This document shows positions 30,001 through 33,000 of a DNA stretch of 64,000 nucleotides, piece by piece. Position 1 is the stretch's first letter; each line of letters begins with the position of its first letter. The position numbers were made by a program. Source of the DNA: Escherichia coli (lineage in GTDB: Bacteria > Pseudomonadota > Gammaproteobacteria > Enterobacterales > Enterobacteriaceae); the NCBI RefSeq assembly GCF_003334815.1, contig NZ_QOWO01000011.1, one strand, 5' to 3'.

Positions 30001-33000
30001 GGCGCATCGCCAATGCGCTTCTTTTGCGACATCGTTTTTCCGCTCTCCAAAACTAATCTGGCGGCGCTGTTTGTGATCACCTTTATCTACGGCTGGAATC
30101 AGTATTTGTGGCCGTTGTTGATTATTACCGATGTGGATCTCGGCACCACCGTGGCAGGGATCAAAGGGATGATCGCTACAGGCGAAGGCACCACGGAATG
30201 GAACTCAGTGATGGCGGCGATGTTGTTAACGCTTATCCCTCCGGTGGTGATTGTTTTAGTGATGCAGCGTGCCTTCGTGCGCGGCCTGGTCGATAGTGAG
30301 AAATAAGATGGCAGGACTGAAATTACAGGCAGTAACCAAAAGCTGGGATGGTAAAACCCAGGTCATTAAACCGCTGACCCTTGATGTGGCGGATGGCGAA
30401 TTTATCGTGATGGTCGGGCCGTCTGGCTGCGGGAAATCGACGCTGCTGCGCATGGTTGCCGGGCTGGAGCGGGTGACAGAAGGCGATATCTGGATCAACG
30501 ACCAGCGCGTGACTGAAATGGAGCCAAAAGATCGCGGGATTGCGATGGTGTTCCAGAACTACGCGCTTTATCCGCATATGAGTGTCGAAGAAAACATGGC
30601 GTGGGGGCTGAAAATTCGCGGCATGGGCAAGCAGCAAATTGCCGAGCGCGTTAAAGAAGCGGCGCGCATTCTGGAGCTGGACGGTCTGCTCAAACGTCGC
30701 CCGCGCGAGCTTTCCGGCGGTCAGCGCCAGCGTGTGGCGATGGGCCGCGCGATTGTGCGCGATCCGGCGGTGTTCCTGTTTGATGAGCCGCTCTCTAACC
30801 TCGATGCCAAGCTGCGCGTGCAGATGCGTCTTGAACTGCAACAGTTGCACCGTCGCCTGAAAACGACTTCACTCTACGTTACTCACGATCAGGTTGAAGC
30901 GATGACGCTCGCCCAGCGAGTAATGGTGATGAACGGCGGTGTTGCCGAACAGATTGGCACACCAGTTGAAGTCTACGAAAAGCCCGCCAGCCTGTTTGTA
31001 GCGAGTTTTATCGGCAGTCCGGCGATGAACCTGCTGACAGGCCGCGTGAATAACGAAGGCACGCATTTCGAACTGGACGGCGGTATTGAGCTGCCGCTAA
31101 ACGGTGGCTACCGTCAGTATGCCGGGCGTAAAATGACTCTCGGCATTCGCCCGGAACATATTGCGCTAAGCTCGCAGGCAGAAGGCGGCGTACCGATGGT
31201 GATGGACACGCTGGAGATCCTCGGCGCAGATAACCTGGCGCACGGACGCTGGGGCGAGCAGAAGCTGGTGGTGCGACTGGCGCATCAGGAGCGCCCGACG
31301 GCAGGCAGCACGCTGTGGCTGCATCTGGCGGAAAATCAGCTGCATCTTTTTGATGGTGAAACAGGACAACGAGTATGAGTAACTGGCCTTATCCCCGCAT
31401 CGTCGCTCATCGTGGCGGCGGTAAGCTGGCCCCGGAAAACACCCTGGCGGCAATCGACGTCGGGGCAAAATACGGTCATAAGATGATCGAATTTGACGCG
31501 AAGTTATCGAAAGATGGCGAGATCTTCCTGCTCCATGACGACAATCTCGAACGTACCAGCAACGGCTGGGGCGTCGCGGGTGAACTGAACTGGCAGGATT
31601 TACTGCGCGTGGATGCGGGCAGTTGGTACAGCAAAATGTTTAAAGGTGAGCCGCTACCGTTGCTTTCGCAGGTGGCGGAACGTTGCCGCGAACACGGGAT
31701 GATGGCGAATATCGAAATCAAACCCACCACCGGCACCGGGCCATTAACGGGCAAAATGGTGGCGCTGGCGGCACGCGAGCTGTGGGCCGGTATGACGCCG
31801 CCGCTGCTGTCATCGTTTGAGATTGATGCTTTAGAAGCTGCACAACAGGCGGCACCGGAACTGCCGCGCGGTTTGTTGCTGGATGAGTGGCGCGACGACT
31901 GGCGCGAACTGACCGCGCGGCTGGGCTGCGTCTCTATTCATCTCAATCATAAGTTACTCAATAAAGCGCGAGTGATGCAGTTGAAAGACGCCGGACTGCG
32001 GATTCTGGTTTATACCGTCAATAAACCCCAGCGCGCAGCAGAGTTGCTGCGCTGGGGTGTGGATTGCATCTGTACCGATGCGATTGACGTGATTGGTCCG
32101 AACTTTACGGCCCAATAGTTTTCAACGGAATGTCAGGCTGCGGCGTGCTGGGCTGATTCAGCATGTCGCCGTTTCTCCTCTCCGGCAGCATATGCTGCTG
32201 ATTCAACGAACTATCCGGATTACGGTTGCTGTTTAACATCCCGCCGTTGGTGTTGGGCAGCATTTGCTGCCGGGCGGGATTTCGCTCCCCCGGCTGTGAC
32301 TGCAACACCCGCTGAGAATTATTGTTTATCTGGTTTTCTAAATGCTGCTGTTGCAACTGAGTTTGCGTTTTCAGTTGCTGATTCAGCATCCCTTTTTGCT
32401 GGATTTGCTGAGTCTGCATCTGGGTTTGCATCCGCTGCTGGCTGGGTATCTGATACCCCGGCTGGTTAGGGTTGTTCAGAGTATTAATGGGCTGTGCAAA
32501 GCCGACAAACGGCAGGAGTGCCGTAAGAATCAGAAGTCGTTTCATCGCGTATCCTCCTCTGAAGATATCCTTTAAGTTTACTCGCTTCCCGACAAAACGA
32601 TGATTAATTCAGAGTTATATACCAGGCTTAGCTGGGGTTGCCCCTTAATCTCTGGAGAATAACGATGATAAAACCGACGTTTTTACGCCGGGTGGCCATT
32701 GCTGCTCTGCTCTCAGGAAGTTGTTTTAGCGCCGCCGCCGCGCCTCCTGCGCCGCCCGTCTCGTATGGTGTGGAGGAAGATGTCTTCCACCCGGTACGCG
32801 CGAAACAGGGAATGGTAGCGTCTGTGGACGCCACTGCCACTCAGGTGGGGGTGGATATTCTCAAGGAGGGCGGGAATGCCGTTGATGCCGCCGTGGCGGT
32901 GGGCTACGCGCTGGCGGTAACGCATCCGCAGGCAGGGAATCTGGGCGGTGGTGGTTTTATGTTAATCCGCTCGAAAAATGGCAATACCACGGCTATCGAT

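Follow-up and report, generated by a model that had tools for sequence, protein, structure and literature searches.

The window studied here is a 64,000-nt stretch of Escherichia coli DNA (assembly GCF_003334815.1, contig NZ_QOWO01000011.1), and it contains a short reading frame, yhhA, whose product looks like low-complexity Gln/Asn-rich sequence and whose 3' end runs into that of ugpQ. The locus raises the question of whether such a frame encodes a conserved protein, where that protein goes, and what it may do there.

Identity and constraint of yhhA

yhhA is a real, expressed, protein-coding gene of the DUF2756 family, which is restricted to Enterobacteriaceae and already catalogued. Its position in the window is:

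32105–32545, minus strand: yhhA coding sequence, DUF2756 family (ORF list, translation, Pfam, NCBIfam and RefSeq)

Translation gives an ATG start, 146 codons and a TAA stop at 32105–32107, matching the coordinates and sequence in the initial annotation, and the ORF is 100% identical to yhhA of E. coli K-12 MG1655. The gene name agrees with RefSeq, where the ORF is labelled 'yhhA: DUF2756 family protein'. The protein matches Pfam PF10956 (DUF2756) with an E-value of 1.1e-60 over model positions 1–105 of 105, and it is a full-length match to the equivalog NCBIfam NF007675 (PRK10350; 265 bits against a cutoff of 136, positions 1–145 of 145); the E. coli K-12 protein is the founding member of DUF2756. 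The Pfam search, taken down to E = 10, returned DUF2756 alone, with no LTXXQ match. A PDB sequence-profile search with YhhA found no relatives at E up to 1, and an Rfam scan of 31300–33000 gave a single chance match (RRE, 12.5 bits against a cutoff of 104). The signal peptide, the PSQQRMQxxM...QRVLQSQPG core and the position between ggt and ugpQ are those of the DUF2756/YhhA family, and the window YhhA shows no difference from it.

The gene is present in 5425/5426 complete E. coli genomes. Its conservation also extends beyond close relatives, across Enterobacteriaceae genera, and the frame is open in every genus compared. Antisense shadow ORFs (32342–32575 on the plus strand, and others) were rejected, as they come from CAG/CAA codons read as CTG/TTG and are not consistently open in other genera. 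A comparison of repeat numbers among strains had been suggested for this gene, and such variation is rare: in a sample of 60 evenly spaced complete E. coli genomes, all 59 full-length matches (59/59) have the same 146 codons (the 60th record, a partial match, was left out), and the variant YhhA alleles of 96–165 aa in the protein collection belong nearly all to 1- to 3-member clusters. Repeat-number polymorphism was rejected as a population feature. Regarding a mobile origin, there were no phage matches, and the 3 'plasmid' matches are to records of 4.8–4.9 Mb, which is chromosome-sized.

The substitution pattern indicates that the amino-acid sequence of YhhA is under strong purifying selection over its whole length. 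E. coli strains differ by 6–13 synonymous and 0–2 non-synonymous changes in yhhA, and the comparison with E. whittamii gives 27 synonymous and 7 non-synonymous differences, with none of the latter in residues 7–74 and only 1 (vs about 16 synonymous) in the core, residues 35–84. Seven of the eight Escherichia alleles compared with the window (7/8) have no non-synonymous difference in residues 18–34, and the other has one, P29S. Across genera, dN/dS is 0.04–0.25. The dS of 1.7 in the helix against E. albertii and E. whittamii is high because the two-fold Gln/Asn codons leave few synonymous sites, as seen by codon inspection.

Export and predicted architecture of YhhA

The coding sequence can be divided into the following parts:

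32495–32545, minus strand: Sec-type signal peptide, residues 1–17, predicted cleavage before Q18 (n/h/c regions, -3/-1 rule)
32444–32494, minus strand: conserved Pro/Asn-rich N-terminal segment, residues 18–34, predicted non-helical (alignment, AlphaFold2)
32294–32443, minus strand: Gln-rich proline-free core, residues 35–84, one long predicted alpha-helix (AlphaFold2)
32108–32293, minus strand: predicted disordered Pro/Asn/Gln tail, residues 85–146, with the conserved C-terminal end PLKTIGP (AlphaFold2, alignment)
32231–32272, minus strand: tail repeat copy 1, residues 92–105 (self-alignment P 0.002; DNA direct repeats D5, D6)
32156–32200, minus strand: tail repeat copy 2, residues 116–130 (self-alignment P 0.002; DNA direct repeats D5, D6)

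The N-terminus of YhhA has the features of a Sec signal peptide, with the classical n/h/c anatomy, in line with the signal peptide that the initial annotation had proposed. The call is rule-based (a positive n-region, an h-region of 7–15 residues, a small side chain at both -3 and -1, and absence of a lipobox Cys): the n-region is M-K-R, the h-region has 11 hydrophobic residues, the c-region is G-F-A|Q-P, where G15 occupies -3 and A17 occupies -1, and there is no lipobox because the protein has no Cys. A17-Q18-P19 is invariant across 20 genera, and the signal-peptide anatomy is kept in all of the homologues aligned (20 and 37 members). YhhA has been listed among the 15 most abundant proteins in a 60 C PBS extract of stationary-phase cells, and the periplasmic proteins HdeB, PsiF, YmgD, ZraP, SodC and Ivy were recovered alongside it (PMC9731836), which is an indirect sign of where YhhA resides.

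The mature protein (about 129 residues) is predicted to consist of a Pro/Asn-rich head, a Gln-rich helix of ~50 residues and a disordered Pro/Asn/Gln tail. AlphaFold2 gives residues 18–34 a pLDDT of 55–73 and no secondary structure, predicts a single 50-residue helix over residues 34–83 with a pLDDT of about 90 (block values of 90–93 for residues 41–70), and assigns the tail a pLDDT of 44–54. The alignments show conserved positions in all three parts. In the head, N21, N24, N25, P26, N27, Y31 and P34 are invariant in the 20-genus alignment. The core, which follows the signal peptide and the head, bears the family signature PSQQRMQxxM...QRVLQSQPG (alignments of 20 and 37 members), and M43 alone is invariant when 37 distant members are aligned. 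Conserved tail residues are L96, P97, N98, G101, M103, L104, M119 and L120, together with P140, K142, T143 and P146, and four ML pairs show little or no variation, while strain C41(DE3) carries a P97L change; the ML-repeat tail is absent from distant DUF2756 members of 80–117 aa. The low-complexity look of YhhA is misleading, since it hides a long helix and short motifs, both of them conserved.

The helix has weak amphipathic periodicity, with an uncorrected P of about 0.03 at 98 degrees and no significance at 100 degrees. Helical-wheel and Fourier analysis of the core gave a weak 11/3 periodicity and no heptad pattern, and the strongest signal in the core is a period-2 alternation of hydrophobic residues (e.g. 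MQTQMQTQ and LKTQTQLQ). Helix pairing was modelled with two copies of residues 18–86 joined by a Gly/Ser linker, using a paired alignment, and gave a pLDDT of about 60 and a pTM of 0.29. Self-association of YhhA is not supported, because this crude two-copy AlphaFold test, uninformative to negative, was less confident than the monomer.

In composition, mature YhhA has 21.9% Q and 14.1% N (36% Gln+Asn), 10.9% P, 5.5% Met and 5.5% Gly (7/128 residues), with a GRAVY of -1.39. The Q/N-rich degenerate repeats described for this protein are confirmed by these values and by two tests: there are 5 copies of 'ML' where composition-preserving shuffles would lead one to expect 0.65 (P = 5e-5), and the self-alignment of the tail halves scores 41 against 21 +/- 4.6 in shuffles (P = 0.002). 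The duplicated tail unit is QQ(H)MLP-x3-4-G-x-MLN, and at the DNA level direct repeats of 15–17 nt are retained 72–75 nt apart (D5 and D6). We call the repeats degenerate because Tandem Repeats Finder reported nothing on 32000–32700; they are visible as protein repeats and short DNA repeats.

Expression and the favoured role

Three features of the ggt/yhhA spacer bear on expression:

32553–32557, minus strand: Shine-Dalgarno GGAGG, 7 nt before the ATG (sequence)
32575–32580, minus strand: candidate -10 TAAACT within the conserved block GTAAACTTAA, 29 nt before the ATG (alignment)
32610–32631, minus strand: second conserved block of the ggt/yhhA spacer, CTAAGCCTGGTATATAACTCTG (alignment)

A purine-rich GGAGG-like block precedes the ATG in 16/16 genera aligned. 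Further upstream, the -10-like TAAACTTAA is conserved (T91, A92, A94, C95, T96 and A98 are invariant in 16 genera), and the TAAACT hexamer is, by similarity, a candidate promoter element of yhhA, with a predicted transcription start near 32568. The block around it is similar to TATACTTAA, the consensus of the RpoS-type extended -10. The sigma-70 consensus scan upstream of yhhA gave no promoter match. The CTAAGCCTGGTATATAACTCTG block, invariant at T41, A42, A43, C46, T47, G48, G49, T50, A53, A55, A56 and C59, is a candidate promoter or regulator site for yhhA or ggt.

According to published data, yhhA is transcribed with the RpoS general-stress regulon, in stationary phase, cold, acid and envelope damage. 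An RpoS-holoenzyme SELEX peak lies within the ggt/yhhA spacer (PMC5493296), and yhhA was grouped with the RpoS-regulon genes that are induced on cold shift (PMC4057180). Other reports include a 2.5-fold change at a growth transition in O157, 5.6- and 9.9-fold induction by a LolCDE inhibitor, and upregulation under several types of stress, oxidative stress included. Evidence of expression had been asked of this frame, and both transcript and protein have been detected, the protein in both Salmonella and an ESBL strain of E. coli.

The function had been left unassigned, and it stays so: the literature mentioning yhhA assigns none, and no phenotype was found in it. The best explanation overall, to which we give a probability of about 0.6, is that YhhA is an exported DUF2756 protein of the periplasm that serves as a non-catalytic binding or protective stress protein. 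Once cleaved at A17|Q18, YhhA would remain in the periplasm rather than be released into the medium, and would act there without catalysis; the conserved helix would offer a surface for specific interaction or self-association, and the tail would contribute its Met-Leu motifs as short linear contact sites.

Known proteins resemble YhhA to different degrees. The small periplasmic proteins of the RpoS and envelope-stress responses (OsmY, YbgS, YmgD, PsiF) are likewise small, Sec-exported, induced by stress or in stationary phase, and abundant, and YmgD, PsiF and ZraP were recovered in the same heat extract as YhhA; the difference is that Gln and Asn, not charged residues, dominate YhhA. The CpxP/Spy/ZraP group is helical and periplasmic, like the predicted YhhA, but no sequence relation of YhhA to this group or to other stress proteins was found with Pfam (to E = 10). 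Hydrophilins, as Garay-Arroyo et al. are said to have defined them in 2000, have more than 6% Gly and a hydrophilicity index above 1. YhhA is like hydrophilins and LEA-like proteins in its hydrophilicity (index of 1.39, above that threshold), in disorder outside the helix, stress induction and heat solubility, and in the weak 11/3-type hydrophobic periodicity; it differs in its Gly content, which at 5.5% is below the 6% cutoff, in its probable periplasmic location, and in having no 11-mer LEA repeat.

Alternative readings of the locus

The methionines of YhhA suggest a different role, as an oxidant sink (HOCl scavenging with MsrPQ repair) or a Cu(I)/Ag(I) buffer acting via M39, M43, M53, M103, M119 and M128, which we consider unlikely. 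The Met content, the invariance of M43 and the (nearly) invariant ML pairs would suit it, as would the induction under several stresses, oxidative included. SilE and PcoE are disordered periplasmic Met/His-rich metal binders of about 143 aa with repeated HxxM or MxxH, and YhhA shares with them its approximate size, a signal peptide, conserved methionines and a disordered state with a tendency to form helix. However, YhhA has 2 His, no Cys and neither HxxM nor MxxH, and yhhA is a chromosomal core gene that, unlike theirs, does not belong to a plasmid-borne metal-resistance operon. The M-x3-M pair is not conserved, as many members have Leu in place of M39, and no cop, cus or msr genes adjoin yhhA. 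A Leu comes after every conserved Met, which suggests a motif for hydrophobic contact and not a thioether ligand.

Gene order could mean that YhhA is a dedicated partner of a neighbour and modulates the periplasmic gamma-glutamyltranspeptidase (ggt) or glycerophosphodiester uptake (ugp). Upstream of yhhA is a divergent ggt in 78/80 species loci, and ugpQ is convergent in 79/80, as in the window; the same arrangement surrounds distant members of 99 and 145 aa, and the ggt/yhhA spacer has the conserved blocks given above. However, all of these loci are from one bacterial family, so vertical inheritance would suffice to account for the synteny, and at one locus ggt is replaced while the adjacency to ugpQ is kept. 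Moreover, GGT works in many bacteria that lack DUF2756, and UgpQ is cytoplasmic whereas YhhA is exported. Such a partnership seems improbable to us.

It is also doubtful that YhhA, as a sequence-specific, Gln-rich helical protein, forms at high concentration a reversible higher-order state (e.g. a coiled-coil network or condensate-like matrix) in the stationary-phase periplasm, in which the ML motifs would act as stickers and envelope proteins would be protected during stress. An abundant, heat-soluble, Q/N-rich protein with multivalent conserved motifs and strong constraint fits such a state; the crude two-copy AlphaFold test was negative. If true, higher-order YhhA would give bacteria an extracytoplasmic equivalent of the Q-rich assemblies of eukaryotes.

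The composition had also been likened to secreted prion-like or adhesin-like segments, a comparison that is unsupported given the confident helix, the exact-sequence conservation, the Pro-rich tail and DUF2756 as the only domain. We think it quite unlikely that YhhA is a prion-like or amyloid-forming secreted protein whose Q/N region would self-template in the periplasm or outside the cell, like curli or yeast prions. Michelitsch and Weissman (2000) reportedly set their census criterion at 30 or more Q/N per 80 consecutive residues, and YhhA reaches 36 in its best stretch of that length (residues 21–100); the period-2 alternation in the core and the abundance and export of YhhA are also on the side of this proposal. 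Against it, the core is confidently predicted as helix, not as disorder or beta structure. Conservation of composition only, in a disordered region, is a further test for prion domains, which typically tolerate scrambling, and this is not what was found, as the exact sequence of YhhA is conserved. The mature protein has 14 prolines (9 in the 62-residue tail, 6 in the Q/N-richest 80 residues). The genes next to yhhA include no partner for curli-like secretion or nucleation, and YhhA is soluble at 60 C in the heat extract. Eukaryotic Q/N-rich prion-like domains and Q-rich coiled coils are matched by YhhA in Q/N density and in the Q-rich helix, and they differ from it in that YhhA has sequence-specific conservation, a confidently predicted helix, many prolines and a probable location in the bacterial periplasm. 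The adhesin reading is unsupported: the protein has 146 aa, no usher or chaperone neighbours, and no anchoring, usher or autotransporter module, because Pfam finds DUF2756 only.

The 3' end of yhhA raises the possibility of a role at the RNA level, in which yhhA transcription would restrain the ugp operon in antisense, as an excludon, and the protein would come second. ugpQ is at 31375–32118 on the plus strand, and the features of the junction are:

32105–32118: stop-to-stop overlap of yhhA and ugpQ, 14 bp (ORF coordinates)
32140–32169, plus strand: terminator-like hairpin 3' of the ugpQ stop, antisense to yhhA codons 126–136 (terminator scan)
32019–32058, minus strand: GC-rich hairpin plus UUUAUU, 47–86 nt past the yhhA stop and within the ugpQ coding sequence (RNA fold)

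The convergent 14-bp overlap is as first described, with the two frames sharing 32105–32118 tail to tail, and an overlap of 4–23 bp is kept in 71/79 species loci. From its predicted fold (-27.4 kcal/mol, z -2.8), the hairpin at 32140–32169 is a candidate ugpQ terminator. The one at 32019–32058 (-33.5 kcal/mol, z -4.5; stem invariant in 18 genera) is a candidate yhhA terminator, an uncertain one because the stem shows no covariation and conservation does not extend to the U tail. As each candidate terminator is inside the partner gene, complementary 3' ends of ~150 nt are predicted. yhhA-ugpQ is one of the 165 core convergent excludons of MG1655, and its two transcripts overlap in half or more of 58 transcriptomes (PMC12288877). 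In this the pair is like the other convergent excludons of the E. coli core excludome, and here the coding sequences themselves overlap by 14 bp. However, the purifying selection on the protein reaches far beyond the overlap, the protein is abundant, and 8 species have a gap of 5–96 bp instead of an overlap, and we hold a primarily RNA-level function to be very unlikely. We note that RNA-level and protein roles of yhhA are not mutually exclusive; with the periplasmic stress protein as the favoured reading, yhhA and ugpQ may in addition interfere somewhat with each other's transcription through their antisense overlap.

Finally, a preprint (bioRxiv 10.1101/364117) presents YhhA as a type III secretion effector that mimics ATM-kinase substrates via SQ/TQ motifs, a label that is implausible and that we give almost no credence, because YhhA has a classical cleavable Sec signal, its gene is core to E. 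coli (K-12 laboratory strains included) and found in many Enterobacteriaceae genera, chance alone would put S/TQ motifs into a protein with 22% Gln, and presence in culture supernatants is explained by periplasmic leakage.

The analysis mainly tidies the record of yhhA and does not reveal a new kind of system. What it describes is an uncharacterised 'y-gene' of E. coli K-12 that is core, strongly constrained and stress-induced, and whose product is apparently abundant in the periplasm.

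Identity and anatomy of YhhA

The yhhA gene lies between ugpQ and ggt, and the features discussed below are as follows.

31375–32118, plus strand: ugpQ, the convergent neighbour of yhhA
32019–32058, minus strand: hairpin CCCCAGCGCAGC...GCUGCGCGCUGGGG (32025–32058) followed by UUUAUU, past the yhhA stop and inside the ugpQ coding sequence (z −4.5)
32105–32118: tail-to-tail overlap of the yhhA and ugpQ coding sequences (14 bp)
32105–32545, minus strand: yhhA, 146 codons in the ORF listing
32140–32169, plus strand: terminator-like 12-bp hairpin, about 20 nt past the ugpQ stop and antisense to yhhA codons 126–136 (−27.4 kcal/mol, z −2.8)
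32152–32164 and 32377–32389, coding strand: exact 13-nt direct repeat ATGCTGAATCAGC, copies 225 nt apart, encoding MLNQ
ggt/yhhA spacer, 7 nt ahead of the yhhA ATG: Shine-Dalgarno-like GGAGG
32610–32631, ggt/yhhA spacer: conserved block CTAAGCCTGGT.....AAC, nearly invariant in 16 genera
32665, plus strand: annotated start of ggt, the other neighbour

RefSeq annotates the ORF as "yhhA: DUF2756 family protein", and the product matches Pfam DUF2756 (PF10956, E 1.1e-60) and the NCBIfam equivalog NF007675 (265 bits, cutoff 136). The surrounding 3.2 kb match several E. coli chromosomes at 100% identity, and a 481-bp stretch spanning the ORF is 100% identical to K-12 MG1655. The gene name, position and ugpQ overlap given in the initial annotation are therefore correct. 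The signal peptide and degenerate repeats that it described were also found. By a rule-based reading, the N-terminus shows all three Sec signal-peptide regions with small residues at −3 and −1, and there is no lipobox since the protein lacks cysteine. The mature protein (Gln 21.9%, Asn 14.1%, Pro 10.9%; GRAVY −1.39; one aromatic residue) reaches a maximum of 36 Q/N per 80-residue window. Leucine follows five of the seven methionines (GMLN, QMLP, GMLN, HMLP and DMLN), and ML occurs 5 times versus 0.65 expected from shuffles (P = 5e-5). Tandem Repeats Finder detected no repeat in yhhA; the two halves of the tail (residues 84–146) align with each other (14 versus 15 residues, P = 0.002), and the DNA retains direct repeats of 15–17 nt at 72–75-nt spacing.

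AlphaFold2, run with a 37-sequence alignment, predicted a single long helix at residues 34–83 (block pLDDT of 90–93 over residues 41–70), with the head (18–33) and tail predicted to be disordered (pLDDT about 45–60). Neither of two tests supports a defined coiled coil: confidence dropped in a crude two-copy AlphaFold run, and the hydrophobic periodicity of the predicted helix is weak. We assign a high probability to this identity and anatomy.

Conservation, selection and length variation

The DUF2756 family is narrow, with 79 cluster representatives among 1.84 billion proteins. A search of genomes from 100,044 species found relatives at 152 places, and the best 80 are almost all labelled as Enterobacteriaceae genera. 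Despite the low-complexity look, YhhA is conserved at specific positions in an alignment of 20 genera. Distant members (80–117 aa) still have the signal peptide and the PSQQRMQxxM ... QRVLQSQPG helical core but no ML-repeat tail; once they are included, M43 alone is fully invariant.

Purifying selection on yhhA is strong: the yhhA of the window differs from that of four E. coli strains by 6–13 synonymous and 0–2 non-synonymous changes and from that of E. whittamii by 27 and 7 (no non-synonymous change in residues 7–74), dN/dS is 0.04–0.25 against 18 genera, and the frame is open in every genus compared. For the helix-coding part, the very high dS obtained is an artefact, since two-fold Gln/Asn codons offer few synonymous sites. 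Antisense ORFs over yhhA were rejected as shadow ORFs because they arise where CAG/CAA is read as CTG/TTG, and they do not stay open consistently across genera. In the expression strain C41(DE3), yhhA has a C-to-T substitution at nt 290 (Pro to Leu), which the reporting authors judged irrelevant to the C41 phenotype (PMC4632034); by position this is P97L (codon 97, 32255–32257), and P97 is invariant in the 20-genus alignment.

Repeat-number variation among strains, suggested as a check on the repeats, turned out to be sporadic rather than a feature of the species, because variant-length alleles (96–165 aa in the protein collection) fall almost entirely in clusters of 1–3 members and the length is constant among evenly sampled full-length matches (59 of 59 at the exact query length; the 60th sampled record is partial). 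The gene was found in 5425 of 5426 complete E. coli genomes. In-frame insertions and deletions are confined to residues 40–116, and short direct repeats such as ATGCTGAATCAGC may be a plausible route to these rare alleles. Few complete genomes have no full-length match; in one of them, E. coli A16 from an otter (NZ_CP028758.1), the alignment covers query 254–481 only, and the yhhA 3' half and the neighbouring end of ugpQ seem absent or replaced. In four E. coli strains, ugpQ (31375–32104) differs from the K-12 sequence by 3.7–5.2%, which seems high for a within-species housekeeping gene and is more than for yhhA itself (1.4–3.6%).

Neighbourhood, 3' overlap and expression

Among the species loci of the best 80 relatives, ggt is divergent and upstream in 78 of 80 and ugpQ convergent and downstream in 79 of 80, an arrangement shared by distant 99-aa and 145-aa DUF2756 members. 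The stop-to-stop overlap occurs in 71 of 79 loci (4 bp in 36 species, 14 bp in 14, and 11, 17, 20 or 23 bp in 21), with a gap of 5–96 bp in the other 8. The ugp operon transcript likely ends at the plus-strand hairpin. The minus-strand hairpin may be the yhhA terminator: its stem is invariant in 18 genera but shows no covariation, and its U tail is not conserved; it could instead mirror the conserved PQR...RWG codons of ugpQ. If both are terminators, the yhhA and ugp mRNAs would be complementary over about 150 nt at their 3' ends, which fits the yhhA-ugpQ pair being already on record among 165 core convergent excludons of MG1655 (PMC12288877).

In GCA_001566565.1 (contig LIDZ01000951.1), a 99-aa DUF2756 gene keeps a convergent neighbour at the ugpQ position (gene truncated, Pfam not on record), and upstream, in place of ggt, are genes for a small protein and for one with a Big domain. 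On JGI contig Ga0157361_1000017 (locus L089, 4001–4264), an 87-aa DUF2756 homologue, P0175, lies within a phage-like block, flanked by capsid/portal genes and terminase genes; in PHROG it matches Rz-like spanins weakly (E 4e-4 and 2e-3), probably because of its composition, and a tblastn search against a phage collection gave no match.

The ggt/yhhA spacer carries two conserved blocks. One, GTAAACTTAA, 29 nt ahead of the yhhA ATG, is a candidate RpoS-type extended −10 by its resemblance to the known consensus; the other (32610–32631) has no sigma-70 consensus match and could be a site for a shared regulator. An RpoS-holoenzyme SELEX peak lies inside the spacer (PMC5493296), and yhhA is induced alongside RpoS-regulon genes upon cold shift (PMC4057180). 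Its expression changed 2.5-fold in an O157 growth transition (PMC2241611). The transcript rose upon acid treatment (PMC2270276, PMC7824302), the gene was upregulated under several stress types (PMC9501238), and a LolCDE inhibitor induced it 5.6- and 9.9-fold (PMC5105897). At the protein level, YhhA has been found in Salmonella and in an ESBL E. coli strain. When stationary-phase STEC were extracted with PBS at 60 °C, YhhA was one of the 15 most abundant proteins, beside periplasmic HdeB, PsiF, YmgD, ZraP, SodC and Ivy (PMC9731836), which argues for abundance, export and heat solubility.

Proposed function and alternatives

By computation or cited literature, yhhA is a real core gene under strong constraint, and its product shows exported-protein features, is stress-induced and abundant, and is predicted to have one conserved helix and a motif-bearing disordered tail. 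We propose that YhhA stays in the periplasm and would act non-catalytically, binding or protecting other envelope components in the general stress response, with the helix as a possible surface for specific interaction or self-association and the ML motifs as putative short contact sites; we give this function roughly one chance in three.

The conserved methionines are suggestive of an oxidant sink or metal binder, but YhhA lacks His/Met motifs, and a Leu comes after each conserved Met. A partnership with GGT would fit the conserved synteny, but all the loci belong to one bacterial family, so vertical inheritance accounts for it. Of the prion-like or adhesin-like composition proposed initially, the Q/N-richness stands, at a level above the Q/N census threshold; prion or amyloid formation is argued against by the sequence-specific conservation, by the confidently predicted helix with the many prolines elsewhere in the mature protein, and by the heat solubility, and an adhesin by the absence of an anchoring module in the Pfam search. 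Selection on the protein contradicts a role at the RNA level only, although transcriptional interference may operate alongside the protein function. The Sec signal and the occurrence of yhhA in K-12 and nearly all E. coli genomes contradict the type III effector label in a preprint (bioRxiv 10.1101/364117). YhhA falls outside the formal definition of hydrophilins (Gly 5.5%), and membership in the SilE/PcoE, CpxP/Spy or spanin families is unsupported.

YhhA is already known as the founding member of a catalogued family, and its composition and signal peptide can be read straight from the annotated gene. What this analysis adds is that the low-complexity look masks a predicted helix under high constraint and conserved motifs, that the tail is a duplicated unit, that length variation is rare, that the effector label is implausible, and that the ggt-yhhA-ugpQ order with overlapping stop codons spans the DUF2756 family.
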